A stretch of DNA of 64,000 nt from Octopus sinensis (lineage: Eukaryota). The notes beneath the pieces were generated by a model. The model saw nothing but the letters and a program-made list of their open reading frames with translations. It made no database searches and was not told where the DNA came from. The first letter of the stretch is position 1. Each line of letters begins with the position of its first letter. Position numbers and translations under genes: made by a program. The DNA lies in contig NC_043006.1 of assembly GCF_006345805.1 (NCBI RefSeq), positions 49,786,001 to 49,850,000 on the forward strand, given 5' to 3'. This document shows positions 1,071 through 63,520 of the stretch, piece by piece.

Positions 1071-1502
1071 TATTCTTTTACTTGTTTCAGTCATTTGACT
1101 GCGGCCATGATGGAGCACCACCTTTAGTCGAGCAAATCGAACCCGGGACTTATTCTTTGTAAGCCTAGTACTTATTCTATCGGTCTCTTTTGCCGAACCG
1201 CTAAGTGACGCGGACGTAACTTAGCGGTTCGGCAAAATTATAATTTAGGAATACTAGATTCTTAAATTATACGACCATGAACATTATATACATACATGCA
1301 TACACACATCCATCCATCCATCTATCCATACATACATACATACATAAAAACGTATTACTGCTATTGGTAAGATCAACATCGCTTGACAACATCAGCATCA
1401 GTTGTCAAGCGATGTTGGGGGACAAACACAGACACGCAAACATATATACACACACACATACATACATACATACATACATACATACATACATACATACATA
1501 CA

Positions 1503-1535
<33 letters not shown>

Positions 1536-1536
1536 G

Positions 1537-1569
<33 letters not shown>

Positions 1570-1692
1570 GTGAAATAGAAAGATGAATAATCTTGTAGTA
1601 GATTAATCAAAAGTTTAACCGATACCTTAGTAGCAAAAATCACAGCAGTAAAATTGGATTGCTCCATTTCTTCAATTCACCAATAATGTTTT

Positions 1693-1786
<94 letters not shown>

Positions 1787-1958
1787 CACATATATACGAT
1801 AGGCTTCTTTCAGTTTCCAACTACCAAATCCACTCACAAGGCTTTGGTCGACCCGAGGCTATAGTAGAAGACGCTTGCCCAGGTGCCACGCATTAGGACT
1901 GAATCCAGAACCATGCGGTTGGTAAGCAAGCTACTTACCTCACAGCCACTCCTGCGCC
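1071..1958 (-). mobile_element. tRNA-derived SINE family A, broken copy with insertions at ~1215-1390 and ~1570-1690
   Basis: Minus strand: head GGCGCAGGAGTGGCTGTGAGG (A box) with B-box-like GGATTCAGTCC, body GGGCAAGCGTCTTCTACTATAGCC, internal microsatellite, tail ATGGCCGCAGTCAAATGACTGAAACAAGTAAAAGA; matches many other copies in the window. Confidence 0.9.
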
Positions 1959-2911
1959 TATATTATTGATAAAAAAAAATACTATAGTAATCAATACAAA
2001 TGCTTCCTTCTAATTTCTGTCCTACCAAATGTTTGAGAAGTAAATATTTTCCTTGCTTAATTAGGATGCACTTTACAGTAGGAAACTTTCGGCTTCCCAT
2101 TTTTAACAGGGAAACAGGGGGATAATACACTTGCGTGAAGAACCAAATAAGACTCCAGGTAATTTCCGCAAAACTATTACATTGTTATCGAGTAATACAA
2201 ATTTTCCTTCATTCGAAAGTCTGTTTTTATTGACATGTGTATTAGACAAATCATTGTTTAACACACGCACACGCACATGTGCACAACTACGTATATTAAC
2301 AACTGACATTTTGTAAATTCGGTATCCTTGTTTAAGATTAGTGATTGTCTTTCGGTAAATATCATGATTTACATCTGTTAATGTCTGTTGGATGGAACCC
2401 AAATATATAATATATAATTCACCTGTCATTCCGTTTGTATGTTAAGATGTGCATTAAGCTCTGTCCGTTTGCCAGTGTCCTTGCTTGCATCAAGATAACA
2501 CGTGAGTTAGCAGTAAAGGCATATCAATCCAGAATATATTTAGAGCGATATTTAATGGCTATGAAATAAACTTTAAGGAAAATGTTATTCTGTAAGTTAC
2601 TGCGTTTGTGGATCGCTCATGCTTCCTAACTAACTCTTATACCGGTCGCTTCGCTACCAATATAAAATGGATTATCATGGTATATCACAATTTCTGGTTT
2701 TACCCTATATGTACTATATATTTCTGTACCATATTTACTTTACAACTTTTACTTTACAATTATGTGGAGTAGATGGACAGCCGACGAGTGATGAAGGGTC
2801 GTTCTTTATGTTACCTGTCTTGTTTTCCATTTAGTTCTCTCGTTGTTCGCAAAAGAAGTTTGTTTTCGTATTTCATTTTGCTTACGTTTTGTTACATCCT
2901 GTACCCATATA

Positions 2912-2973
<62 letters not shown>

Positions 2974-3032
2974 ATATGTCAGTATGTACATATATGTATG
3001 TATATATCATATATATTTTATTTATATTATAT

Positions 3033-3073
<41 letters not shown>

Positions 3074-3864
3074 TTGTGTGTGTGTATGTGTTACTATTAA
3101 ATTATTGCATTCATATTTAATAAACCAAATTAATTTTTGCTTTTCATTTAATTCACTCTGATCATAAACCGCCGGTAATGATAGAGATGAGATTTAAGCA
3201 CAAATTTATGTAACTTTAGTGAAACATCATGAACAATTTTTTGCGAAAAAAAAAATCACTACAAAAATTTATGTTGCGGTAATATACACACCAGAAAATG
3301 TTTTTTTTTTCATGTGTTGCTCCGCGTTGAAATAATGCTTCAGTACAGTCTATTTCGTAGCAACAGAAATTATTTTTTAAATATAAAATATATGAATGTT
3401 GTCGATGTTGACCTTCTCCGATAAATATCCAGGTGTGCAGCTAGTTTCCATTATTTTATTCTGTCTTCTTTTTCTCCCTCACATTTTTCTTTCCCTTTCG
3501 CCCACTATTTTATTAATAAATTGTTATATAAATCCTCTTTCAAACAATATACTACACTATAAAGTACAACGGATTTGCCCCTTTCCTTTTATAACGTCAC
3601 TAGCAAAATCTTTGAATTACACAATTGGTTTGGTGCCTGGAAATCTAGCGATATTTTCAACCTCTTCTTGCTTAAATTATTCTTGTCTTCTTTCATCTCT
3701 AATTTAATCCACCCATTTCTCATAATCCATTTCTTTTTATTCATATTGTTTCTACTTTTCTCCTTCTCTTACTCTGTTTCTGTTTCACGTGTTTACTTTT
3801 TTCCGTTTCCTCTCTTTTCTTTCCTTCTTCGTCTTACACGTTTACCATCTAACAATGTATAAAG

Positions 3865-6988: not shown

Positions 6989-7206
6989 TATATATATATA
7001 TAGATAGATAGATAGATAGATGAGTGTATTTTTACCTTGTTAACAATTAACAAGGAAAAAATAAATAAATAGTCACATAATAACAACTGTCAAATATTAA
7101 GACATTTAATAATACTAACATTAATTTAGCTAATACCATCCAACCCTCTAGAAATATTAATAACAAGGTTATTGTATCTGAAGTCAATTCCAATAGAATT
7201 AAGTTT

Positions 7207-7598
7207 ATGTCAAGTAACTCTAAGATTAAAAATTCTATATACCAGTGTATAATCAGTACTCGTAATAAAGTACGATTTTACATGGGAAGCACATCGTTAG
7301 AGTTATCTAAAAGAATTTCTATCCATTACTCAACATTTAGGGATAGAAATAAACGTAATAGTACCGGTCTCAGCAAACTGATTTTGGGATTTAAAAGACC
7401 ACAATGAACAATTTCATTTAGAATGGTTGATTCTCTCAAGTTCGATACCTTATGACAAAGGCAAGGAATTCTGTCATCTCTGCAATTCTGAGCTATTTTT
7501 CATTATTTTTTTCTAAAAATACTCTAGTAAACACGATTATAGAGCGAGCATACAGATGTAAGCATTGGCAAAAACACACATTTAGTGCATATAAGTAG
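7207..7598 (+). pseudogene. Penelope-like GIY-YIG endonuclease remnant
   Basis: IYQCII...FYMGST...KRISIHYSTF...STGLSKLI, then after a frameshift PYDKGKEFCHLCNSE and RCKHWQKH: the Penelope endonuclease motif order. Confidence 0.8.
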
Positions 7599-7798
7599 TC
7601 TCTATCATTATATATAATTTAAACTTTAATTTTCTTTATATTTAACATTCACTATTGGTATCCCTACTCTATCTGTTAGCTACTTATGACGTTATATCAT
7701 ATAACGTTTTTAAAACAATATTAACAGCGTTCTGTCTATCGCTATACAAATCCATCATTTTTTGCTAAAATGTCTTATTGACGAGTTTCGCTTTTTTC

Positions 7799-7881
7799 AC
7801 TTTCTTGAGAAGATTGCATTGTTTATACCATTTATTCTTTTGAATAGTATCAGTGGAATTTTCGAAACATGTGTCGAAAGT
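7799..7881 (+). ncRNA. Degenerate type I hammerhead-like motif downstream of the Penelope endonuclease
   Basis: Stem I ACTTTC/GAAAGT, core TTGAGA (vs CUGANGA), CGAAA, short stem III CATGTG, GUC triplet. Confidence 0.45.
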
Positions 7882-7936
7882 AAAAATATTTGATTTACAC
7901 CTGCGTTAAACTCCATTTATTTTTTCATATTATATG

Positions 7937-7989
<53 letters not shown>

Positions 7990-8152
7990 ATATATATATA
8001 TATATATATGTATATATGTGTGTGTACATATATATGTGTATATATATATGTATATATATACTAATATAGGATGAAGCTTTTTTTACAGAAAAAAATTCAA
8101 CCAAAAAATGTGGCAGCATATTAAAATAACTATAATTTTAACCTTAAAATTA

Positions 8153-9913: not shown

Positions 9914-10106
9914 AAGAAGGATGCCAGAAGTAGACCATAAGGGGTATACTTCTAGCATAATGTATGTCCAATTAGTGGTCATCCCTCTTTTTTGTATGCA
10001 ATGTAATTTTTCTGAATCTTCAGATTTTTCAATATGCTAGACCACTGGTTTGAAATTGATATTAATCAAATCAATATTCAGTTTTTCACCCTTATTTGAA
10101 ATTTAC
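9914..10106 (+). repeat. Structured repeat (P1-ACCACT-hairpin family), probable Penelope-type terminal repeat fragment
   Basis: Near-identical to 23533-23713; CTAGCATA (9952-9959) complements TATGCTAG (10033-10040), followed by ACCACTGG. Confidence 0.7.
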
Positions 10107-13699: not shown

Positions 13700-14790
13700 C
13701 ATATATTGCTTGGTGTAGATGTGGAGGTAGGAAACGTAGCTCGTGGAACAATTTACTTTCAACATTAGCAAGATCGGTCCACCCCCAAGTCTACTCAGAG
13801 ACGGAATAATTTTACCTGCCAGGGTAACAGCTATAGGTTAATTAGCATATCACGGAAATAAACTTCTGGAAAGTTTTACAGATTTTTACAGTTCCAGTGA
13901 TTGACATGATCTGTAGTCTTCGAATTATCTTTCTCCTTTCTGCTTTTGAGAAGCCTAATTTTCTAAGATTGGCATTTAGGCAGTGAGTTACATATTCCAG
14001 GGCTCCAATAATTACAGGTATAAACTTGAACTTGTAATCTGGATACAGTAACTACAGATTTCTCAATAGTTCAGTGTAGGTATTCTCTTTTTCACTAATC
14101 TTCAGCCTCATGTTAACATCGGCTGGGCAGCTAATTTCCACGACTGTACACAGTTTCTCTTCTCTATCCCAAATCATTATATCAGGTCTGTCGTGCTTAC
14201 ATTTTATTGAGGTCTTCATTGGTACATTCCACCAGTATTCCTTTTTATTATGAGTAGCTATGGCTTCTACCATATTGTGGGTTCTTATTTCTTTGTCCTC
14301 GGGATTATCCTTCCGACGGATTTCATTATAGAGTGTCCCAGCTACAACGTCATGTTTCATTGATAGATATAACAGTGATAACATTTTCGGAGAACTGCTT
14401 ATGATGTGGGTGATATCTTCAGTGTGAAATCCACAAAGTCTGCATCGGTTGACACATTTTACGGATTTTTCTTCATCTCTATCCCTTTTATGTATCAGGT
14501 ACTTGGTTGATATTTCCTGTTCCTGGATTGCAAACGCATACCCTTTGAAGTGGGAGGTAGGAATCCGGCTATTGGTCCATGATAGACTGCTTTGATGATC
14601 AGTGTTACTATCATCTCGTAGCTTTCTACTAACATATCCATGCATAGTCTGCTGCTCATATATGTTCGTCCTTTCATCTGAAGATACTTTTGCAGTAGAG
14701 TCGTGTGACTTCTTTGAGCATGTATTTAGGGTTATCAGATAATGTTGCTCAAAGAGCTGCCTTCCTAGTCTTATGATGTTATCAGCTCCA
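13700..14790 (-). mobile_element. R4/Dong-like non-LTR retrotransposon 3' end (restriction-like endonuclease)
   Basis: ORF 14052-14645: MHG..., FAIQEQEI, zinc knuckle CRLC...E...HI, KHDVVA, RPDI...EI...K, then IPVIIGAL after a stop. Confidence 0.85.
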
Positions 14791-14977
14791 TGTATGTATG
14801 TATGTATGTACGTTATGTATGTATGTATGTATGTATGTATGTATGTATGTATGTATGTGTGTATGTATGCATGTAAATTGATAACAGAAGGGTAAAATTT
14901 ATCAATTAAATTAATTAATTAATTAAACAATTAATAAACAATTTTGCCAAGTAGATCGGTACGTTAAAATAACCTTT

Positions 14978-23109: not shown

Positions 23110-23143
<34 letters not shown>

Positions 23144-23160
23144 ATATATATTATATATAT

Positions 23161-23200
<40 letters not shown>

Positions 23201-23212
<12 letters not shown>

Positions 23213-23709
23213 AGAGGGATGACCACTAAGTGGACATCCAGTATGTCAGAAGTAGATCCCCTCTAGTCTTACCAATAAGAAAGGATTGTTCTCAAGAAAA
23301 TTTAGCAAACACCAAAACGAAGACTTTTGAAAGGTAAACTGTATACATGTTCAATCTCATGCGGACGTTCTGCATATAGTTCTGCAAATTATATTTTGCT
23401 ATGACGATCACACTGATGAGTTGCGGACAATTACGTGATTAATCTTTATATTTCATATTTTTTCATTTGTCTTGCTCGCTTATGTTCTATCGTTTGCTAA
23501 ATTTTCTTGAGAACAATCCTTTCTTAGTGGTAAGACCATATGGGGTCTACTTCTAGCATAATGGATGTCCACTTAGTGGTCATCCCTCTTATATGTATGT
23601 AATATAATTTTCTGAATCTTCAGATTTTTCAATATGCTAGACCACTGGCTTTAAATTGATATCAATCAAATTAATATTCAATTTTTCATCCTTATTATTC
23701 TAAATTTAA

Positions 23710-23713
<4 letters not shown>
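23201..23713 (+). repeat. Fold-back element (arms ~23205-23310 / 23492-23597) ending in the P1-ACCACT-hairpin motif
   Basis: ~105 bp inverted arms, CTGATGAG in the spacer, flanked by (TA)n. Confidence 0.8.
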
Positions 23714-31341: not shown

Positions 31342-31570
31342 TTTGAATGGTACAACAATGCACTATAATACAGACAGTGGGCTATATACCTGTTGTAATT
31401 TAGTCATCCATAATAGTCTGTTATAATATTTCGGAATAATATTCCTTCTTCAGATATCTAAGAATACCTGAAGAAGGAATATTATTCGGAAATATATCAG
31501 ACTATGAATGGCTAAATCCAACAGGTCTATCGCCATTTTCTATTATAGTGCATAGTTGTATCCATTCAAA
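31342..31570. repeat. ~230 bp palindrome of two back-to-back hammerhead cores
   Basis: Right arm CTGAAGA-A-GGAAT-ATT-ATTCG-GAAA-TATA-TC (31468-31498); the left arm is its imperfect reverse complement. Confidence 0.75.
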
Positions 31571-32335: not shown

Positions 32336-32529
32336 ATATATATATATATATATATACCGTTTTGGGATTTGGTTTGCAAGATTCATTATGTGAGCTCGTA
32401 TGTTGACGCATATTATGTTGTGTCTGGGGAGAACCATTCTTTTTTAGTGCCTTATAATTTAACACACTCACCGGTAAAAGTTCCACTCATTTACTTATTT
32501 ATTTTTCGAAAATTTTTCTATACTATACA

Positions 32530-33586
32530 GGTTACGCAAATACCACAAACCCTACATAAACCCTGTCATGGGGCCCTCAATCCCACCAGTTTGCGGAGCG
32601 AATATCTCCAGCAATTATAGACTGTCCTACTTTCTCTCACAAGTATTATGTCCTCTCATAGAAATGTCCCCAGATGTCTGTGTGAGCACGGAAGATCTCA
32701 ATAAAATCACTATTTGCAACCACTCCAACGACCTCAAAGGTTGTGTATTGTGTAGTATGGGCGTGATTTCACTCTGCCGATCTATAGACATAGATTTTGC
32801 TGTGGAGAAAGGCATTGAAATAATCAGTGCAAGTGAAGTAGAGTTTCGTGAAGTCAACACGAGGGAACTGGGCCTCCTCCTTAGACTAAGCTATGATAAT
32901 GACTATTTAAACGACCATAACCTCAGTAGATTCTGCCCCACCAGGTGACAGAGGGGAAGACCACCTACCATCACCTCAGCAGTGAAGAAAAGCACCACAG
33001 AGCGCTAGAGTGGTTAGACCGTACCCACGCAAAACCCTGAGAACAACAATCAGGTGAAAGTAATGATTGCACATGCAACAGGAACTAGCATAAAAACCAC
33101 CTTGAAGAACCACATAGTAAAGTTTAGCAAGAAAACTATACATGCAGGTTCAAGGTGCAGGTGTAGCTGGAGATGTGACTAGCCTCTTCATGACTTGGTG
33201 GGACAGAAAACTTAAGCAATCCTTAGCAAAACAGTCCACAGCTCTTCTACTTTACATTAGGCTTGTAGATGACATTAATATCATAGTTAAGACCAATTCT
33301 AGTAACGGTAGTATAGAAACTGAGAGGAATATAATGGAGAGCATCCAGCAAATAGCTAACTTCATCCACCAAAGTATCACGGTAACTATAGATTACCCAA
33401 CGAGGCACCCCGACAATATACTCCCCGTCCTTGATACAGAACTTTGGTTAGAGACTGTGAACAACGGAGTGCAGTTCCTCCACTCCTATTACATGAAACC
33501 CATTGTTTCGAAATATGTTGTTCACAAGAACTCAGCTTTGTTACACAACAGGAAAATAAACATACTGATGGCAGACTTAGTTAGGA
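32530..33586 (+). pseudogene. Penelope-like reverse transcriptase, degraded
   Basis: PVCGA, STEDL, SMGVISLCRSID (degenerate motif A), long insert with CPTR...RGRPPTIT, FMTWWDR, YIRLVDD (motif C), LPVLD, YYMKP. Confidence 0.8.
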
Positions 33587-34331
33587 CTAGCAGTATAACC
33601 CCGCCTTGCCCGGGATTAAGTTACGATTATTAAGCTAATCAAGTTCTTTATTTCAAACCAAACTAAGAAATATAGACGTCAAATTTAGGCGAAATCCGTT
33701 GAAATTAGTTATATTATATATATATAACAATATAATATATGTACATACTTACATCTACATATTATATACAAGCATATATATATATATATATACTAATATA
33801 TATATATATATATATATGAGTACAGGACACCACAAATAAACGTAGAACACAACGAGAAACGAAAACAAAATCAAACAAGGAAACGGCCTTTTTCTAACAA
33901 CGAAAAAACAGAGTACAGGACAAACAATACAAGGAAAATTCCCCTTCATCAGCTGTCCCTGGTTCGGCTCAATGCGTGTTTCGAAGGTAAGGACAGAACA
34001 CGGCCAGGCCGAAGCAGTCCTTCCTGCAAAAGGAATTAAATAAATTCTTTTGCAGAGGGGTAAAACAAGTGACAAGACCAGGACGTAAAAGCTACAAATG
34101 AAGAAAAGACAGTAGAAAAAACAGTACAAATAAGGAATACAGGGCAGGAAACCAACAAAAAGTGCTTTTTTTAGGCCTAGACGGTGGAAAAAATTAGTTA
34201 CAACGCATGTGAAAAAATCGGCTTGCGGAAGACAGGAAGTCGGTCTACATATTATACATATATATATATATATATAAATATATATATACTATATATATAT
34301 AGATATACATACATACATATATATATATATA

Positions 34332-34376
<45 letters not shown>

Positions 34377-35300
34377 TATATATTATATAATATAATATAA
34401 TATAAATATATATGGGCAACAGACACGAACACACATACGTACGTACACCTATTGTCTGTTTTTGTGCACACATACATGTTCATAAACAGAAATGAATGGA
34501 AAAAATGTTGTTAAATTTGTAGATTAGCACTCGCACAATTTTCACTAAGAAAAAAATTCGTTTTTTGCGTGGAATCAACTACTCTGGCCTCAAAACCCTT
34601 TTTGTGGTCCGTGAAACGGAGTGGGGTGTGGTGAAAGCCTCGCAAATTGTACCCATTTATAGTGTGTAATTCACTGACAAATTGTTGCTCACCTCTTTGT
34701 TTCTTTGTTGTTAAATAAATGGATTGTCAACAAAACACTTTTTTACTCGGCGTAAAATAAAAACAAAACTCTTTCGCACCCAAAATAATGAGTGTGAGAG
34801 AGAGAGGTGGGGGAGAAAGATAAACGATTTAAAATAAATAAATGATTTAAAATAAATATATTGTAATTGTTGTGTGAGAAAGTATATGTACTATGATTAT
34901 AAAGTATAGCGTCTTTCAAAAACAAAAAAACAAAACATTTTACATATTATTTTTTATGAACGTCATAACTTACTCTCTCTCTCTCCTTCTCTCACTTTGT
35001 CTTTCCCGTGAAACTCTCTGCCTCCTTCTTCCAATTTTCTTCATCTTATTTTTTTTGTTAGACGCCATCAAAAAGTAATCATATCTATAAAAGGGAGGAT
35101 GTGTGTGCGTGTGTGTGTGTGTGTGTACGTGATTGTAATTTATGCACGTCCGCAAATTAGCACGCATGTCGCTCAATTTGAAGGACATTTTTCAACACCC
35201 TATCTGGGTTTTGTCAACTTATTTTTTTCCCGAGGTACCCGCGGATAGGGTAAAAATCTATTTTCAACCAAAGAGCTTGTGATAAAACAAACGGTGAACA
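33587..35300 (-). mobile_element. Helitron-like insertion interrupting the Penelope ORF (far boundary uncertain)
   Basis: Minus strand ends CCCGGGCAAGGCGGGG-TTATACTG-CTAG|T (hairpin plus CTAG) exactly where RT homology stops. Confidence 0.55.
33722..34247 (-). repeat. Partial copy of the tandem non-coding element seen at 59.6-61.5 kb
   Basis: High identity to 59640-60057 including CCCCTTCATCAGCTGTCC...GCGTGTTTCGAAGG; embedded in (TA)n. Confidence 0.9.
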
Positions 35301-35620
35301 CGTTGTATAAAACCGACAAATATCAAAGAGTGATGTTTGTAAAGGCCACAGCCCATGGAGATCTAGCCCGTAGATTTAGGAAAACTCTGAAGGAGACCAA
35401 ACTCAACAATAAGGTTGTTGAAAAACCAGGAAATTCCATCAGATCACAACTATGTAGGACGTACCACTTTGAGAATACCATATGTACCAATGATAACTGC
35501 ATGGTATGTAGAATTAGCCCTGGCATTAACTGTAGAACTAGAAATGTAGTCTACAGCATAAGGTGCATAGAAGGTGCTTGTAAAGACACAAACATGACAT
35601 ACATGAAAGGAAAAGTCACA
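35300..35620 (+). pseudogene. Continuation of the Penelope ORF: linker, Cys cluster and start of GIY-YIG
   Basis: VMFVKATAHGDLA...VVEKPG...CTNDNCMVC...NCRTRNVVYSIRC. Confidence 0.75.
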
Positions 35621-35689: not shown

Positions 35690-38513
35690 TTGCAATAACA
35701 GACGAGGAAATACACATACCACAGTATGTTGTACTACGGACCGACGAAAAGAAGGAGTCATGGAGGGATTGCTATGCATCCGTGAGGACTCTCACACCCC
35801 AGGTCCTTTTGTCATACTCAATTCGGTGTGTAACACAACTAATTGTACATATAAGGCAACTTGGTGTAGTTATATGTGCTACATATCGCCCTCCAGATGC
35901 CCCAAGCCATGTAGGCAAGTTTGAAGACTGCCTTATAAAATAGAATTCTAGTCACATAGAACAACACATAAGTATACTTCTATGGGAGACTTCAATCTAC
36001 CCAATGTCAGATGGCCCGAGGGCTTTCTCTCCCAGGAATGACACGATGTGAACGAGACAGGTGAGGTCCCTCCTGAACCTCATCAACACTCTGTACATGG
36101 AACAAGTAATACTCCAACCAACCAGGGCAGGTACATAACTGGATCTCTGCTTCACAAATATATGGATCTCATCATATGTGAAAGTGACGCCGACACTACT
36201 CTCAGATCACAACATGGTAGAGCTGACCATGTACGGCCAAAGGAAAGCATGGACATGCAGCCTACAAGAAACTCTCAAATCTTTCAGCCTGAACTTCCAT
36301 AAGGCAAACTGGAAACAAATGCGAAAGAGATCTCAAACAAAACTGGCCTGAATGTCATCCTCGCCAGACATCGACGTGAAACTTCAACAATTCACGTCTG
36401 TCATGCAAGCCGTATGCTACAATGTGTCCAGAGAGAAAGGCCACTGTACACAATAGCAAAATCCCCAGAGAGAGGAAAATTCTAATGAGACGGCGTAACA
36501 AAAGTTTCAAATCGCCTAAACAAACAAATTGAAAGCAGTGAAAAGTCCCGCCTGAAAATAAAACTGTTGCAAATTGAAAAATGTCTGCAACTCTCCCATG
36601 AAAAGGAAAGAGCAGGCAAAGAAGCCTGGGCTATAGACAATATAAAATCTAACCCCAGAGTTTTCTACAGGTATGCCAAAGAAACAGCTACGGTGCACTG
36701 TAGGATAGGGCCACTCCTTGAAAAGGATGGCACACTCACAGGAAATCCAATGAGGATAAGTGAAATACTAAATGAGCAATTCAAGAGTATTTTCACTCCA
36801 CCCTTAGGCATTTTTCAAGTCAGCAATCCAACTGACTTCTTTACCACTGCAGATATAAAATCAGAGGCAGCGATGATGATTACATCAATATAATGAAATG
36901 AAAACAAACTCAGCTACTGGCCCTGATGGATTCCCAGCAATCCTTCTAAAAGAATGTAAGAGAGCCTAGCAAGACCACTGCAGTTCCTCTTTCAGAGCTT
37001 CCTTGCAACTGGCAAACTTCCAAGAAAACTGAAGGAAGGTAAAAATGCCCTATTCTTCCTAAAGGAGTAGCAGAGCGGAGGCCAGACTACAGACCTATCT
37101 CTATGACCTCACACATCAGCAAGGTCATGGAACGAATAGTCAGAAGGAAACTAATCACCTTCCTTGAAGAAAATGACTTGCTGCCTGACACCCAACATGG
37201 TTTCCGACCAGGAAGAAGCTGCTTAACTCACTCCTACACTGGGTGCTGAAACGACTGCCCAACCACTCAAATGTGGAAGTCATATATCTCGACTTTGCAA
37301 AGGCCTTTGATAAAGTCGATCATGGAATGATATGTCCAAACTGCGTGATCTTGGCATAGTTGGGAATTGGGAGAATGGCTTCATGACTTTCTGAAGTATA
37401 GAAGTCATAACAACGCAAATAGTGAGCGGTGTTCCTCAGGCACTGTTCTGGGACCACTACTGTTCATAATGGCCCTCTCAGGCATGCCCTCAGCCACGCA
37501 GAGAGCCACGATCACAAGTTATGCAGATGATACAAAAGTTCACAGGCATACAGAACCCTGAAGAACTAAGCACCTGCAATGTGAGCTGGACAAATATACA
37601 AGTGGGGTTGAAAAGAATAGCATGCAGTTCAATGCTGAAAAGTTTCAAGCTTTATGCTATCAGCATGCAAAACTAAATGCAATACCCAATAAAACACTGA
37701 CCTGGAGGGATTGCAATCCCAGAGGCACAATCAGTGCGAGACCTATTCATGCCATTTAGACCGGGTATTACTGGTGATGATGCAACCTTTCATGTGCATG
37801 TTGCTAAATTGGCAATGAAATGTAGGCGGGCTGGACCGGATGGATTCTTAGAACTTTAGAACAAGAGACCAGGAAACCATGATGGTCCTCTGGAGGAAAC
37901 TTGTCCTAAGCCACTTTGGACTATTGCTCTCAGCTATGGTCACCATCCAGTGTCAAGTTAATCACAGAACTTGAGGCGATCCAACGAAGCTACACGAAGA
38001 AGATAGCCTCTGTGTAGCGTATAAGCATTGGGAAAGACTCAAGAGATTAAGACTCTATTCCTTAGAGCGTAGGCGAGAAAGATATGCATAATAACATCTG
38101 GAAGATCCTAGAAGGACTTGTCCCAAACTTTGGCATCGAGAGTTACACAAATGCCAGAACTGGGCGCCACTACATAGTGCAAGGACTCCCAATTTGCCAT
38201 CAAGATGTAGAACAAGATACTGTGATAGCCTGGCTTCCGAGGCCCACATCTCTTCAATATTCTCCCGAAAACCTAAGAGACCTGCATGGGTGGATGCAGA
38301 TGTCTTTAAAATGAAACTGGATCCTCTTGTCAGGTGTCAATGAACCAACTTCACGGCAGGAGGTGCAGATGAGGGCAGCTGCATCGAACTCTCTCATGCA
38401 CCAGATGGCATTTGCTAAAAAGCATTCGTGAAGTAAAATCATGTAGCAACACGAAATGGCGGTGCCCCAGCACGGCCAATCTGTGAGCTGAAACTAAAAT
38501 AAATAAAAATAAA
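35690..38513 (+). mobile_element. CR1-group LINE (APE-RT), 5'-truncated, heavily frameshifted
   Basis: Colinear with 48001-50900; YRPPD, GPDG, YRPIS, QHGFR, YLDFAKAFD, YADD, YSLERRR motifs; 3' stem-loop and (TAAA) tail. Confidence 0.92.
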
Positions 38514-38636
38514 TGAGTGGAAATTTTACGGTGAAATCAAAGCACTAAAAGAGATTGAAATCTTAACCAGTCAGTATAATATTATATATATATATATATT
38601 ATATATAATATATATATATATATATATCTATATATA

Positions 38637-38682
<46 letters not shown>

Positions 38683-38688
38683 CAACAT

Positions 38689-38955
38689 AAAAGAGATACC
38701 CGAAGAATAGGATATCTGACTCGCTAGAAAGAGCAGTCAAAATTTCCAAGCCACCAATTGTTGTAATTCCGAAAGTGATTGGAAAATAAAAACGTTCTAG
38801 CGAGTCAGATATCCTATTCTTCGGGTATCTCTTTTGTGTTTGAATGTACACTGTATTATTCTCTGAATAATATATAGTCTATTGGCTAGTTTTTTCTCGC
38901 TAGACCACTGGTAACTAAGAATTTTTCGATAAATATTCTTGTTACCCTAAGTTTT
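38689..38955 (+). repeat. Fold-back element (41 bp arms) ending in the P1-ACCACT-hairpin motif
   Basis: 38689-38729 is the reverse complement of 38795-38835; CTAGCGAG/CTCGCTAG, ACCACT, then GGTAAC...GTTACC hairpin. Confidence 0.8.
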
Positions 38956-43466: not shown

Positions 43467-44224
43467 TCATGGCCAGTTCAAAATGCCCGCCGTTTAATTC
43501 CATGTGAGATTGGGTCAAAATATCGCCGCAGTAAATACAGTGACGAAATAAATTAAAATTTATATAAATATGGATAAGATCGATAATTTAAAAATAAAAT
43601 AACGATTTTATCAAGTGGTCAACATGGAAAAAAATAACCTTCAAAGGTAATAATTATTAAAATTATAAATTAGGGTATCTACGAGATACCACCATGCTGA
43701 AAATAGCAGCCATGATCTGACTCTAAAACCACCTTGATAGTCCATATATCAACACGGAGAGAAAACAGACACAAGATGAAACTAGTAAAAATTGCTGGAT
43801 AATTCTAGATCCCGGATTTCTGACTTTGCATTTAGTAATGCTTTGCCTCGTCAGTAGAATACACACAGAAGAGAAACATAAATACATATATATATAAGCA
43901 CAACATACGAATACTTACATATATGAACATATACCTACATATATATGCACGTATGCATCATGACCAGTTCAAAATGCCCGCCGTTTAATTCCATGTGAGA
44001 TATGGTCAAAATATCGCCGCAGTAAATACAATGACGAAATAAATTTAAATTTATATAAATAAGGATAAGATCCTTATGCATCGTTAATTTGAAAATATAA
44101 TAACGATTTTATCAAGTGGCCAGCATGGAAAAAATAACCTTCAAAAGTTAATAATTATTAAAATTATAATTAGGGTATCTACGAGATACCACCATGCTCA
44201 AAATAGCAGCCATGATCTGACTCT
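43466..44224 (-). repeat. Partial tandem repeat (~260 bp direct copies, period ~490 bp) with a hammerhead between copies; Penelope pLTR-like
   Basis: 43466-43724 matches 43957-44224. Confidence 0.85.
43802..43860 (-). ncRNA. Type I hammerhead ribozyme motif
   Basis: Minus: ATTCTA-CTGACGA-GGC AAA GCATT ACTA AATGC AAA GTC-A-GAAA-TCCGGGA-TC-TAGAAT; perfect 6 bp stem I, near-palindromic stem III, AUC triplet; one extra A before GAAA. Confidence 0.7.
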
Positions 44225-44314: not shown

Positions 44315-45480
44315 AAACTGAGAATGTGTTTCTGTCTGTCTGTGTGAATCCCTAAAACTTGAGAACTACACAACCAATTTCATTCAAATTTTACACATGC
44401 CTTACTTAGGGTGAAGGTAGTGTCATGGGCAAAAGAAGTTTTAACTTCTTGCCTAGGGCAATATAATATCTTCTCTACTATTTCAATATTACGTGTCAAA
44501 AGTAAAAGAAAACATCTCTCTATTGTAATGTCAGATACTTACACTTCAATACTGAAACTATTACATAACAGGGATGAACTGTAAATGGATATCCATCCTC
44601 CTAGAAGAAGATCCGCTATAGTCTTATATGCTACACCACTGGTTTTAAATTCATACTAATCAAATTAATATCCAATTTTTCACCCTTGTTATTTTAAATT
44701 TAAATTTACATGTACATATATATATATATATATATATAATATATATATATATATTATATATATATATATATATATAGATGTATACAAATAGATGTATATA
44801 TATAGATGTATATATATATACATGTATATATATCGATGTATATATATATGCATATATATATATAAATGTATATGTATACATGTATGTGTAGATGTATATA
44901 TATATACATGTACATGTAATATGTACACATATATACATGCATACATATATACACCCATACACGCACCCCCCCCCCACACACACATACATAGGTGCAGGTA
45001 TGGCTATGTGGTAACACACTTGGTTCCAAAACACATAGTCCTCAGTTCAGTCCCACTGTGTGGTAACTTGGCATGTGTCTTCTGCTATAGCCTTAGACCA
45101 ACCAAAGCAGTGTCAGTGGATTTTGTAGACAGAAACTAAAAGAAATCAATTGTATATATATGTATGTATATATGTAAGTCTCTGTGTGTGTCTTTGTGTT
45201 TCTCCCTCATCACTGCTGCAAAACTGGTGTTCGTTTATTTACATCCCCATAACTTACTGGTTTCACAAGAAGAAACTGATACAATAAGTCCCAGGCTTAT
45301 CAAAATAAAAAAAAACACTAGGTAAAGTCTCATATTTCTGTTTGCCCATTCAGTTTTATCAATCAATTTATCTTTGTGTGTGTGTGTATACATATATATA
45401 TATATACATATATATATGTGGTGGGGTGGGGGCTTTCGTAGACAGGAACTGAAACAAATCAATCGTGTATATATATATAG

Positions 45481-48000: not shown

Positions 48001-51000
48001 GATTGATTTTTGATTTTGATTTTGATTTTTCCAGTTTCAGCTTATGAGCTGTGGCCATGCTGGGGCACCGCCATTTGGCGTTGCTACTTGGTTTCACTTC
48101 ATGAAGGCTTTCTAGCAGCTGCTATTTGGTGCATGAGAGAGTTCGATGCAGCTGCCCTCATCTGCCCCTCCTGCCGTGAAGTTGGTTCATCTGGGAATCC
48201 TGACAGGAAGAGATCCAGCTTCATTTTAAAGACATCTGTATCCACCCCATGCAGGTCTCTCAGGTTCTTCGGGAGGATATTGAAGAGCTGTGGGCCTCGG
48301 AAGCCCAGGCTATCACAGAATCTTGTCCTACATCTTGATGGCAAGTTTGGAGTCCTAGGCACCACGCAGTGGCGCCCAGTTCTGGCATTTGCGTAACTCT
48401 CGATGCCAAAGTTCAGGACACTTCCCTCCAGGATCTTCCAGATGTATATTATGGCATATCTTTCCCGCCTACGCTCCAGGAATATAATGTTAATTTCCTG
48501 AGTCTTTCCAGTAGCTTACATTCTGCATAGAGGCTATCTTCTCCGTGTAGCTACGTTGGATCGCCTCGAGCTCTGTGATCAACTTGACACTGGATGGTGA
48601 CCATAACTGAGAGCAGTAGTCAAAGTGGCTTAGGACAAGTGTCCTCCAGAGGACCATCATGGTTTCTTGTTCTCTTGTTCTAAAGGTTCTGAGGATCCAT
48701 CCGGCCAGTCGTCTACATTTCATTGCCAATTTAGCAACATGTACACGAAAGGTCGCGTCATCACTCATGTAAATACCTAGGTCACGCACTGATTGTGCCT
48801 CTGGGATTGCTATTCCTCCGGGTCCAGTGTATTCATTGGGTATTGCATTTAGTTTTGCATGCTGATAGTATAGAGCTTGAAACTTTTCAGCATTGAACTG
48901 CATGCTATTCTTTTCGGCCACTTGTATATTTTGTCTAGCTCACATTGCAGGTGTTTAGTGTCCTCAGGGTTCTGTATTGCCTGTGAGACTTTTGTATCAT
49001 CTGCATAACTTGTGATCGTGGCTCTCTGCGTGGCTGAGGGCATGTCTGAGAGGGCCATTATGAACAGTAGTGGTCCCAGAACAGTGCCCTGCGGAACACC
49101 GCTCACTATTTGCGTGTTAATGGAAGTGGCCACTACCACCTGACTTCTATCTTTCAGAAAGTCATGAAGCCATTCTCCCAGTTTTCCAACTATGTTGAGA
49201 TCACGCAGTTTGTGACATATCATTCCATGATCGACTTTATCAAAGGACTTTGCAAAGTCGAGATATATGACTTCCACATTTGAGTGGTTGAGCAGCCGTT
49301 TCAGCACCCAGTCATAGTGTTGTAGGAGCTGAGTTAAACAGCTTCTCCCTGGTCGGAAACCATGTTGGGTGTCGGGCAGCAAGTCATTTTCTTCAAGGAA
49401 GGTGATCAGCTTCCTTCTGACTATTCGTTCCATGACCTTGCTGGTGTGTGAGGTCAGAGAGATAGGTCTATAGTTCTTGGCTTCCGCTCTGCTACCTCCT
49501 TTATGAATGGGGCATATTTTACCTTCCTTCAGTTTTCTTGGAAGTTTGCCAGCTGCAAGGAAGCTCTGAAAGAGGAACTGCAGTGGTCTTGCTAGGACTC
49601 TCTTACATGCTTTTAGGAGGATTGCCGGGAATCCATCGGGGCCAGTAGCTGAGTCTGTTTTCATTTCATCTATAGCCTTGATTACATCGTCTTCCTTTAT
49701 ATCGATGTAATCTATCGTCGCCGCCTCTGATTTTATATCTGCAGTGGTAAAAAAGTCAGTTGGATTGGTGATTTGGAGATGCCCAAGGGGTGGAGTGAAA
49801 ACACTCTTGAATTGCTCATTCAGTATTTCACTTACCCTCATTGGTTTTCCTGTAAGTGTGCCATCCTTTTCGAGGAGTGGCCCTATTCTACAGTGCACCG
49901 TAGCCGTTTCTTTGGCATACCTGTAGAAAGCTTTGGGGTTAGATTTTATGTTGTCTATAGCCCAGGCTTCTTTGTCTGCTCTTTCCTTTTCATGGGAGAG
50001 TTTCAGACATTTTTCAATTTCCAACAGTTTTATTTTTAGGCGGGACTTTTCACTGCTTTCAATCTGTTTGTTTAGGCGATTTGAAAGTTTTGTACGCCGT
50101 CTCATTAGAATTTTCCTCTCTCTGGGGATTTTGTTCTTGTGTACAGTGGCCTTTCTCTCTGGGACATATTTGTAGCATATGGCTTGCATTACAGACATGA
50201 ATTGTTGAAGTTCACGTCGATGTCTGGCGAGGAGAGACATTTAGGCCAGTTTTGTTTGAGGATCTCTTCTCAATTTGTTTCCAGTTTGTCTTATGGTAGT
50301 TCAAGCTGGAAAGATTCTGGGGGTTTCTTGTAGGCTGCATGTCCGTGCTCTCTTTTGGCCCGTACATGGTCAGCTCTATCATGTTGTGATCCGAGAGTAG
50401 TGTCGGTGTCACTTTCACATTATGGATGAGATCCATGTCATTTGTGAAGCAGAGATCCAGTGTGTTACCTGCCCTGGTTGGTTGGAGTATTACCTGCTCC
50501 ATGTACAGGGTGTTGATGAGGTTCAGGAGGGACCTCGCCTGTCCTCGTTCACATCTTGTCATTCCTGGGAGAGAAAGGCCCTCGGGCCATCTGACATTTG
50601 GCAGATTGAAGTCTCCCATAAGAAGTACACTTATGTGTTGTTCTAATGTGGTTAGAACTTCTTCTATTTTTATAAGGCAGTCTTCAAACTTGCCCACATG
50701 GCTTGGGGCATCTGGAGAGCGGTATGTAGCACACACAACTACATCAAGTTGCCTAATATGTACAATTAGTGTGTCACACACCGAGTTTGAGTATGACAAG
50801 AGGACTTGGGGTGTGAGGTCCTCACGGATGTACATAGCAACACCTCCATGACTCCTTTCTTTCCTGTCGGTCCGTAGTACAACATACTGTGGTATGTGTA
50901 ACTCCGCATCTGCTATATCCGGTTTCAGGTGCGTTTCCGTTAGTGCTATGCATAAGGCTTGATTGCATGCAACAAAATCTCTCAGGAACGGGATTTTTGT

Positions 51001-51003
51001 CAT
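48001..51003 (-). mobile_element. CR1-group LINE ORF2 (APE endonuclease plus RT), 5'-truncated, few frameshifts
   Basis: ORFs 50212-51003 (ALTETHL, GGVAMYIR, MGDFNLP, TLDL, SDH), 48849-50240 (GPDG, NYRPISLTS, QHGFR, YLDFAK, SGVPQGTVLGP, YADD), 48490-48921, 48099-48365; tail (TCAAAA)n. Confidence 0.95.
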
Positions 51004-51044
51004 ATTTTTTTTTTTTAATTTAAAAAAAAATATATGTAACTATC

Positions 51045-59600: not shown

Positions 59601-60837
59601 AATAACATATAATAATAAAAAAATATATGCATATATACATACTATATGTACATACTTACATCTACATGTATATATACAAGCATATATATATATGAGTACA
59701 GGACACCACAAATAAACGTAGAACGAGAAACGAAAACAAAATCAAACAAGGAAACGGACTTTTTTAACAACGAAAAAACAGATTACAGGATAAACAATAC
59801 AAGGAAAATTCCCCTTCATCAGCTGTTCCTGGTTCGGCTCAATGCGTGTTTCGAAGGTAAGGACAGAACACGGCCAGCCCGAAGAAGTCCTTCCTGCAAA
59901 AGGAATTAAATATAATTCTTTTGCAGAGGGGTAAAACGAGTGACAAGAACAGGACAATGAACAACCAAAAGGGCTTTTTTTAGGCCTAGACGGTGGAAAA
60001 ATTACTTAGAACGCATGTGAAAAATCGGCTTGCAGAGAGACAGGGAAGTCGGTCTATGCTTGTGGAAGGCACGGAGCTGAAAGAAAGTTTTTAGTAGTGC
60101 TCTGGTCAACGAACCAGAGAGGAGGAGAGAGAGAGAGAAAGAGGGGGGGAAAGAAACCAGAAAGGGTGAAAAATAAGAAGGAGAGAGGCAAGTAGAGAGG
60201 AAGACAGACAGGCAGGGAGGAAAGGTGAAGTAAAGAGCAAGAGTGCGCGTCATGATTATTCAAATAAAAACTTACTTGGAGGAGCGAAACGAAGAGAAAC
60301 GACGCGTGCGTTCGGTTATATAATAACAATATAATAAATAAATAAAATATATGCATATATACATACATATATGTACATACTTACATCTACATGTATATAT
60401 ACAAGCATATATATATATATATATATATATGAGTACAGGACACCACAAATAAACGTAGAACGAGAAATGAAAACAAAATCACACAAGGAAACGGACTTTT
60501 TTTAACAACGAAAAAACAGAGTACAGGACAAACAATACAAGGAAAATTCCCCTTCATCAGCTGTCCTCATATATATATATATGCTTGTATATATACATGT
60601 AGATGTAAGTATGTACATATATGTATGTATATATGCATATATTTTATTTATTTATTATATTGTTATTATATGACCGAACGCACGCGTCGTTTCTCTTCGT
60701 TTCGCTCCTCCAAGTAAGTTTTTATTTGAATAATCATGACGCGCACTCTTACTCTTTACTTCACCTTTCCTCCCTGCCTGTCTGTCTTCCTCTCTACTTG
60801 CCTCTCTCCTTCTTATTTTTCCCTTTCTGGTTTCTTT

Positions 60838-60874
<37 letters not shown>

Positions 60875-61707
60875 CTCCTCCTCTCTGGTTCGTTGACCAG
60901 AACGTGACCAAAAACTTTCTTTCAGCTCCATGCCTTCCACAAGCATAGACCAACTTCCCTGTCTCTCCGCAAGCCGATTTTTCACATGCGTTCTAAGTAA
61001 TTTTTCCACCGTCTAGGCCTAAAAAAAGCCCTTTTGTTTGTTCGTTGTCCTGTTATTCCTTATTTGTACTGTTTTTTCTACTGTCTTTTCTTCATTTGTA
61101 TTGCTTTTACGTCCTGTTCTTGTCACTCGTTTTACCCCTCTGCAAAAGCATTTTATTTAATTCCTTTTGCAGGAAGGACTTCTTCGGCCTGGCCGTGTTC
61201 TGTCCTTACCTTCGAAACACGCATTGAGCCGAACCAGGGACAGCTGATGAAGGGGAATTTTCCTTGTATTGTTTATCCTGTACACTGTTTTTTCGTTGTT
61301 AAAAAAAGTTCGTTTCCTTATTTGATTTTGTTTTCGTTTCTCGTTCTACGTTTATTTGTGGTGTCCTGTACTTATATATATATATATATATGTTTGTATA
61401 TATACATGTAGATGTAAGTATGTACATATATGTATGTATATATGCATATATTTTATTTATTTATTATATTGTTATTATATGACCGAACGCACGCGTCGTT
61501 TCTCTTCGTTTCGCTTCTCCAAGTAAGTTTATATATATATACATATATACGACGGGCTTCTTTCAGTTTCCGTCTACCAAATCCACCCACAAGGCTTTGA
61601 TCGGCCCGAGGCTATAGTAGAAGACACTTGCCCAATGTGCCACGCAGTGGGACTGAATCCAGATCCATGTGGTTGGTAAGCAAGCTACTTACCACATAGC
61701 CACGGCT
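59312..61707 (-). mobile_element. SINE family A split by a ~2 kb insertion in its internal (TA)n
   Basis: Tail half 59312-59540, head half 61549-61707. Confidence 0.88.
59600..61531. repeat. Tandem-then-inverted array of a ~0.75-0.8 kb non-coding element
   Basis: Minus-strand units 59600-60566 (GAGTACAGGACACC at ~59694 and ~60431); orientation flips at ~60567; plus-strand units 60568-61531 (TTGTATATATACATGTAGATG at ~60585 and ~61394). Confidence 0.9.
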
Positions 61708-62029: not shown

Positions 62030-63132
62030 GGAATAAAAGCCGATCAATAGGGATCGTGTATCACAGAAATGTCAATGTAAAAAGCGAAAATAGATTAGGT
62101 TTATCAGTGGAAAGAAAAGCCTACGTAAAAATGACCACGGTAACCTTGGGCAATAATGTCATGCAAAAAAAAACACATTACAGTAAGTGACTCTTTTTCT
62201 TTCTTTTTTTTGGTTCATAGGATTATGCTCAAGCTGGCTCCGTCATTCACACGTGCCATCCTTGCTATAGTCACCCATCTTTTTTTGAAACATTCACTAG
62301 ACGAAGCTTCCTTCTTTACTCTCACCTTCCTCTTCAAGTGATACTTGAAGAAGTTGATGAGAGATTGACCAGAGAGGAAAGTGTCTATCTCTAAACCTTT
62401 CAGACGCGTCCACCATACACATTCTTTCGCCATAGCCACAAGTACGATGAAAATGGCTCTTCCTTCCCGTTTCAAGAAAGGAGGCACGACAACATTCACG
62501 ATAGACTCAGTTGATAAACCAACTCGTTCCACACGTGATAGCAGTCGTTCGACATAGGCCCACAGGTCAGAAATGGTTGGACACTGTACAAGTGCGTGCA
62601 GGATGGTTTCATCTCTCAGACCGCATCTCGGGCAGGTCGGCCCCGTGTTTCTCGAGTCATAACTGTAGAGCTTATCCCGAACGGATAGTGCTTCTCGATA
62701 GCACTGCCAGGCCAGGGATCTCTGGAAGTTGTCCATAGGTCCCGGCTCGAAAATCATCTTGAACAGGTGAGTCAGGTATTCCTCGTCGACGCCCAGGTTC
62801 GACCCGAGATCGTCGTCGTACCTCCCCTCCGCGAATCCCCTATAGAATGCTTTGGTTGTGTTAAAGTCGCTCAAGGTTGACCCGGAACGGCACAGTTGCT
62901 TGAGAGCAACGCGATACTCGCGGTACCATTCGCCCTTCCTCGGCCTCTTTTTGATCCACGACTGCAGTTCGGTCATGGAGACGAGCTGCGGGAAAACGCG
63001 ATTCACAAATGGCAACGACACCTGTTCACCGTCTTCTACGTAGAGCCGGAGATGTCGCAGTCTCAGCGCGTGTCTGCGCATCATCAACCACGGCATGCCC
63101 AGTCCTCCTTTTAACGGGTGTTGGCAGCAAAT
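62030..63132 (-). mobile_element. Tx1/L1-clade LINE 3' end (zf-RVT-like region)
   Basis: ORF 62215-63150: KGGLGMP...SLAWQCYREALSVRDKL...CPRCGLRDETILHALVQCP...AKECVWWTR; N-terminal residues come from the flanking microsatellite. Confidence 0.85.
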
Positions 63133-63520
63133 GTACATATATATATACATACATACATATACATTCTCTGAAACAAAATATTACTGCTAGCACGGTTCCA
63201 CGTTTATACACACACTTATTTTGTAATATAAGGCTGCTTCCAGTGCGTTCAATAATTAAATTCTCCCCTGGCTAGCTTTTGTGTGAACCGGTATATGTTT
63301 TGTTTACAGCTTTCTATATTGGAACAAGCATTTTTGTGGCTTAACTCAGAACGTCCAGAGTATACGTCATTGAAAAAACCAAATCAGAACGAAATACCGT
63401 GCATAGCGAGCGATCCGACTTTTATACAAAAATCTCTGAGAAATTTCTCTTTAACAAAATATTGCATCTAATGAGGTTCCACGCATGCGTGCAAATATTT
63501 TGTGTATGCACACCAATACA

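Follow-up and report, generated by a model that had tools for sequence, protein, structure and literature searches.

The motif and its copies in the window

The window, that is the whole 64,000-nt stretch of Octopus sinensis contig NC_043006.1 that was analysed, holds several copies of a multi-helix RNA motif which a sequence-only reading had picked out of highly diverged repeats, and the four P1 helices proposed in that reading are all found in the window sequence where it had placed them. In family A the motif (23552..23694, forward strand) comprises the P1 helix (23552-23560 with 23633-23641), the P2 hairpin, two inner hairpins, a U-rich linker, a CCACU linker and a terminal hairpin, beyond which an AU-rich stretch (23695..23712, +) forms the outer end and adjoins (TA)n at 23713. 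The CUGAUGA core of a hammerhead lies on the same strand at 23413..23419, its GAAA half deleted here and kept at two further loci (L002 and L020), while an inverted partial copy (23204..23310, −) stops at the inner site, located 3' of P2, and there meets a (TA)n tract at 23110-23212. A second family A copy of the motif occupies 9950..10094 (+). Family B is represented by a motif with three inner hairpins after P2 (38795..38950, +) and by an inverted partial copy (38684..38794, −) whose inner-site end abuts (TA)n at 38575-38682. Family C forms a tandem on the reverse strand: the motif of its second unit (43569..43702, −) continues past the terminal hairpin, one complete non-coding monomer of about 501 nt spans 43560..44060 (−), and the motif of an upstream, 5'-truncated unit lies at 44060..44202 (−). 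The latter had been listed as a possible partial member (44070-44200, −) and is now recognised by a covariance model with an E-value of 2.6e-7 as the upstream unit of the ~501-nt tandem; a family A-like 3' half at 44627..44705 (+), consisting of the P1 3' strand, the linker and the terminal hairpin, is likewise matched, at 44558-44688. Two other suggested partial members look like 3' halves by eye, one (14880..14977, −) probably from a group 3 copy and next to an assembly gap, the other (8060..8152, −) possibly from a J-like copy and degenerate, but neither of the two covariance models matches them at E ≤ 1.

ACCACT, the hexamer that follows P1 in the window copies, occurs 41 times in the window, and four of these sites (10041, 23641 and 38904 on the forward strand, 43619 on the reverse) have an upstream helix paired at 8/8 positions, including at least seven Watson-Crick pairs; at site 5967 an 8/8 helix has just five. 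Folding of three window copies recovered the proposed architecture, with z-scores of −4.3, −6.2 and −5.1 that none of 200 shuffles equalled, and the order in all three is a P1 helix closing a multiloop with P2 and two to three more hairpins, then a U-rich linker, CCACU and the terminal hairpin. Some details of the initial description had to be revised: P1 holds three or four hairpins rather than two, the ACCACT linker is a property of the window copies but gives way to GCCGCT, ACTACT/TCTACT or CCATT across families, and (TA)n does not always follow the terminal hairpin, since the 43.6-kb copy continues into repeat-unit sequence and the 10-kb copy into a SINE-like repeat. Many families also share a conserved RRCUGYU-containing hairpin 5' of P1.

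The sequence-only reading recognised no described family in the motif, and the searches agree with it. Among the 150 of 257 Rfam 15 matches listed for the window at E ≤ 1, none falls at the motif coordinates, and a gathering-score scan of five loci with Rfam 15 returned one tRNA elsewhere and nothing at the motif; no description of it was found in the full-text literature searched, with the proviso that Repbase/Dfam and supplements may carry such families as consensus entries.

Folding and covariation across families

A hand-written helix descriptor was abandoned, as its 25 matches in 462 kb were mostly noise with 3 true ones among them, and covariance models were used instead. A model built from families A and B alone recovered family C and further families blind, and a second model added more. 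Folding z-scores range from −2.4 to −6.7 in all 15 copies folded, namely the three of the window and 12 further representatives; among the latter the full architecture is the minimum-energy fold or near it in 10 of 12, and the hammerhead strand folds with the better z-score than its antisense in 10 of 12, the antisense being better in the other two.

The covariation claimed for these repeats is borne out by 12 representatives of group 1 that were aligned with MAFFT without regard to structure (53% column identity): from this alignment RNAalifold predicts both P1 and the terminal stem, and 7 of 13 pairs vary at both positions. Alignment cells are paired in 83.9% of cases compared with 75.3% after shuffling (0/500) and 30-49% in slid controls, double changes occur in 9 of 15 pairs (2/500 shuffles), and extra pair types are no more numerous than in shuffles (294/500), all of these statistics ignoring the kinship of families that are related to each other. 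A model-fitted alignment of 40 distinct rows, which leans to the model and includes register slips and partial copies, is 88.4% paired against 66.8% when shuffled, and here pairing is poorer in P2 than in P1 (78.5% vs 94.3%). In groups 2 and 3 MAFFT misaligned the 5' strand, so that support for the structure there comes from single-sequence folds.

It might be asked whether the structure works at the level of single-stranded DNA, through a rolling circle (Helitron/HUH-type) or some other non-PLE mechanism. The antisense strand folds well too, and the terminal hairpin, CTAG letters, tandem arrays and AT-rich targets presumably resemble those of Helitron-like elements. Such a mechanism is nevertheless very improbable, because the hammerhead cores lie on the same strand as the motif, on which G-U pairs are frequent, and because 5' truncation, inverted partial copies and a tail, all present among the motif carriers, are signatures of Penelope-like elements (PLEs; Craig 2021, PMC8557442).

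Non-coding repeats with hammerheads as carriers

No fewer than a dozen diverged families of non-coding repeats, about 460-600 nt long, carry the motif. About 25 variants in three groups were told apart by eye, the family counts being drawn from about 1.5 Mb of genomic stretches, and first-look genomic candidates for families A, B, C and G number 1,081-3,413 (A 3,413; B 1,081; C 2,493). Copies of families A, B and C share sequence over only some 300-660 nt upstream, and past the terminal hairpin the read-through copies enter their own next unit (A, B, C, D2, D3, G, G2 and I), with head-to-tail unit lengths of ~498-501 nt in C, ~488 nt in D2, ~460 nt in D3 and ~598-601 nt in G. Two more motif families, at L341:6282-6941 and L312:2296-2426, were detected only with search filters off.

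In every long copy examined a type I hammerhead core, whose stem III is short and palindromic, lies 100-200 nt upstream of the motif. CUGANGA...GAAA cores with stem I and a palindromic stem III can be read from the sequence in families A, B, C, D, D2, D3, G, G2, J and others, and at the five loci scanned they score below the gathering threshold of the Rfam hammerhead models. The hammerhead that the earlier reading had connected with the 43.7-kb motif is indeed present on the same strand, ~110 nt upstream; the predicted type I ribozyme of family C (43802..43860, −) combines CUGACGA, a long stem II, GAAA, a short near-palindromic stem III and a 6-bp stem I.

Family G yielded 238 matches, with 97-100% identity among the 150 listed, and forms 600-nt head-to-tail arrays on many contigs, of up to at least 15 units. 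This family is very young. The longest ATG-initiated ORF of its units is 52 aa, and no ORF of at least 90 aa with RT or endonuclease character lies over the window copies. Family C sequence is present in DNA or unlabelled sequencing runs under four organism labels; no run recorded as RNA is among the runs that match it, and the three guessed to be RNA, which consist of contig pieces, were left out of account as a sign of expression. On metagenome contigs with the 14-nt core the motif model gave no match in the 100 of 119 loci scanned.

In their sequence features the carriers fit non-LTR retrozymes, that is non-autonomous PLEs. Like these, they are made up of non-coding units, each a few hundred nt long, low in GC and with one type I hammerhead, that stand in tandem or are dispersed as monomers and multimers through a genome that also has PLEs (Cervera and de la Pena 2020, PMC7229834; Li et al. 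2026, bioRxiv 10.64898/2026.07.22.740005). Compared with these published retrozyme descriptions, as far as they extend, the octopus retrozymes alone have a cross-family structure beyond the hammerhead, mapped two-site ends and inverted two-arm arrays, and cephalopods do not figure in the surveys' accounts (Cervera and de la Pena 2020; Li et al. 2026). In a 2026 repeat annotation of O. vulgaris (PMC13282606) a term search found no mention of hammerhead, ribozyme or retrozyme. The minimal type I hammerheads of PLEs share the short palindromic helix III, the enlarged helix II and a predicted dimeric action (Cervera and de la Pena 2014, PMC4209133), but differ in that the octopus motif is a separate element 100-200 nt downstream, with no Rfam-recognised ribozyme core. 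The kind of element, the retrozyme, is thus known; new is an undescribed covarying structure that spans both ends, for which we infer two-site initiation.

Two end points of inserted copies

Copy ends in families A, B and C cluster at two places, the inner one immediately 3' of P2 and the outer one 8-20 nt beyond the terminal hairpin, mostly against (TA)n, in a map whose main matches had been chosen for full length; family B has two inner clusters, not one. With an upstream-only query, 17 of 30 family A copies end at the inner site, 10 at the outer and 3 elsewhere (positions 120-144), with no read-through. The inner and outer sites delimit a tail of ~100-130 nt, and loose ends of family C contigs in the sequencing runs mentioned above also lie at the inner site, beside (TA)n. 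The two sites tend to be used together: ten of 15 inverted pairs of family A combine an inner with an outer end, two an inner with another end, and one each inner with read-through, inner with inner and outer with other, so that one-inner-one-outer pairing holds for 10/15 strictly and 13/15 loosely. Eight arrays of family G were examined, five of them with two opposed arms, and in each of these five one arm stops at the inner site and the other at the outer, at the same TA or no more than 5 nt from it; two further arrays have an inner end on the visible side.

Each end lies 10-20 nt 3' of a G-C-closed hairpin that CU(U/A) follows, one per P1 strand, and the letters after both hairpins are CCUAAAUUG in D, CCUCA in J and ACCCUU in G. 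As both ends follow a similar hairpin with CU(U/A), each P1 strand leads through a short linker to a hairpin and then to a start site, and the two hairpin-plus-start modules appear to be equivalent. A tRNA-like cloverleaf with a 3' CCA start site (P1 then ACCA) was rejected, given that the ends map elsewhere and the linker varies.

The ends coincide with TA-like letters in AU-rich stretches, and microhomology alone may therefore set part of their position. Carried to its conclusion, this would mean that the fold serves RNA stability, circularisation, hammerhead folding or as a promoter/terminator, and that the two ends exist only because (TA)n primers pair with AU-rich single strands beside hairpins. 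A high degree of self-pairing is the rule in retrozyme circles (Cervera and de la Pena 2020), the whole family G monomer folds with a z-score of −6.7 and the autonomous PLEs of this genome move without this fold, all of which would accord with such a role. We consider it unlikely, however, as other AU-rich stretches of the monomer go unused as ends (of 30 family A copies none reads through and no more than 3 end elsewhere), as microhomology alone leaves the pairing of inner with outer ends unexplained (5/5 in G, 13/15 in A), and as the motif is the part that is conserved across families.

Autonomous Penelope-like elements in the same genome

Eight ORF-bearing PLE families were sampled: two of a CxxC-linker type, which we take to be Neptune-like, five short-ORF families, presumably Hydra-like, and one of a 781-aa type. 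The model scan found the motif in the terminal repeats of none of the eight, and no motif match inspected was continuous with a PLE RT/GIY-YIG ORF; matches near PLEs (L093, L239, L248, L312, L339, L341-L343), considered as pointers to a partner PLE, are separate insertions. Several of the autonomous families have their own hammerhead and two ends. Four of their tails were folded and take up other architectures, with z-scores of −2.0, −1.6, 0.0 and +1.3, and two of the four end in a similar hairpin followed by CCCUA. The sequence-only reading had placed the motif at the 3' end of Penelope terminal repeats, an assignment that, taken strictly, does not hold given its absence from all eight autonomous families; its carriers are self-closing non-coding retrozyme monomers. 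The positional link survives with respect to the hammerhead but not to Penelope ORFs.

It could be argued that an unsampled autonomous PLE family has the motif as its pseudo-LTR and tail, and that the non-coding units derive from this family by deletion. Resemblance to known repeats has been described for 24 of 57 retrozyme families in Xenopus, where 21 of 22 such repeats are PLEs, at the pLTRs (Li et al. 2026), and the autonomous PLEs considered here were sampled from the top protein-search candidates among thousands. Every family with visible read-through (A, B, C, D2, D3, G, G2, I) runs on into a further unit of its own, though, and together with the lack of ORF continuity in the matches inspected and the eight motif-free autonomous families this makes such an origin rather unlikely; it would in any case be compatible with the role of the motif as a platform proposed below.

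At least seven young autonomous PLE families coexist in the genome (L093-L099, L240-L243, L247-L248, L249-L253, L254-L258 and L339-L343 are such loci), with ORFs of 780-1,100 aa and, in several, 3' UTRs of 1-3.5 kb. One PLE protein of this genome shares 98% identity with a protein of Octopus vulgaris. The window itself holds a young 3' fragment of a short-ORF PLE (7084-7930, +; GIY-YIG end and degenerate hammerhead) that ends at (TA)n, near-full 778-aa copies of which, with a tail of ~140 nt, are found at L160/L161, as well as older pieces of a CxxC-linker PLE ORF (32523-33585 and 35294-35605, +) that are 57-59% identical to the young L093 family. At L343:6470-7100 (−) a family F retrozyme, which has both an inner and an outer end, directly adjoins the 5' end of a copy of the PLE with the 781-aa ORF; a shared target or a template switch may have brought the two together, and they are not counted as a chimera, since L339 begins at the same place without family F. 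Different retrozyme families and PLEs are also grouped within the same (TA)n tracts at the L093 downstream flank, L050, L073 and L080, which fits a shared target.

A possible platform for a Penelope-type enzyme

The purified PLE PAc of Anolis cuts and extends both strands of AT-rich DNA, its RT begins at two internal sites that bound a tail, and a dimer is predicted (Frangieh 2024, PMC11167929); PLEs in general have inverted partners, tails and a preference for (TA)n (Craig 2021). The octopus retrozymes are similar to the pseudo-LTR/tail organisation of these elements in having two internal RT start sites that bound an optional tail, AT-rich or (TA)n targets, an inverted 5'-truncated partner and an upstream hammerhead, and differ in having no ORF and a tail of ~100-130 nt as opposed to 30-40 nt (Frangieh 2024; Craig 2021). 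Whereas the description of PAc gives one AC-rich stem-loop, the octopus motif is a multi-helix covarying fold over both sites (Frangieh 2024). With two arms, one site for each and many units, the octopus insertions look like the product of the PLE reaction on a non-coding and probably circular template, and that the motif works with a Penelope-type enzyme is our best inference.

The covarying fold, common to many retrozyme families with two fixed ends, is likely to be a binding and priming platform for a borrowed Penelope-type RT-endonuclease. Of the earlier proposal of a conserved cis-acting RNA tied to Penelope-type mobility or priming, the parts concerning covariation, the hammerhead link, the two (TA)n ends and the inverted partial copies have gained support. 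In the mechanism that we envisage, tandem transcripts would be cut by dimeric hammerheads and then circularised, and the PLE enzyme would cleave both strands of (TA)n. By TA microhomology one DNA end would prime 3' of the terminal hairpin and its counterpart 3' of P2; each cDNA may circle the template several times, and the two cDNAs would be joined head to head. P1 would hold two equivalent hairpins at opposite ends, a pseudo two-fold layout suited to an enzyme dimer, and the motif would be the enzyme's landing platform, setting both start sites. A more far-reaching and tentative idea, for which the odds seem to us somewhat less than even, is that the motif represents a cis-acting RNA of a new class. 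In such a scaffold, duplicated internally and pseudo two-fold in layout, a single helix would offer two equivalent hairpin modules to the two halves of a dimeric, telomerase-related RT, and one (circular) RNA would thereby serve for priming at both ends of the double-strand break.

The motif bears on how PLEs choose internal start sites, how the tail and the inverted arms come about, and how retrozymes recruit an RT. If true, the two-fold scaffold would explain in structural terms why Penelope insertions have a tail and inverted repeats, and family G would offer a circRNA substrate, active at present, for testing it. Dozens of naturally covarying variants, ends sharp to the nucleotide and the very young family G provide a ready alignment and substrate. 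The motif also accounts for a sizeable, so far unlabelled repeat fraction of the octopus genome, and the element could be a compact RNA handle for PLE-based gene insertion.

Other repeats in the window

A palindromic junction at 31427-31494, with CUGAAGA...GAAA hammerhead-like cores on both strands, is another inverted PLE-type end. The stretches at 59760-61541 and 33851-34051 belong to a large nested inverted repeat family, with arms 91-99% identical and one copy 27 kb away, which looks like a PLE-type terminal repeat without the motif. Two LINE copies with APE and RT (48849-51039, −; 36498-37450, +) are 92% alike over 380 nt, and further LINE fragments with zf-RVT lie at 62215-63180 and 14052-14918.
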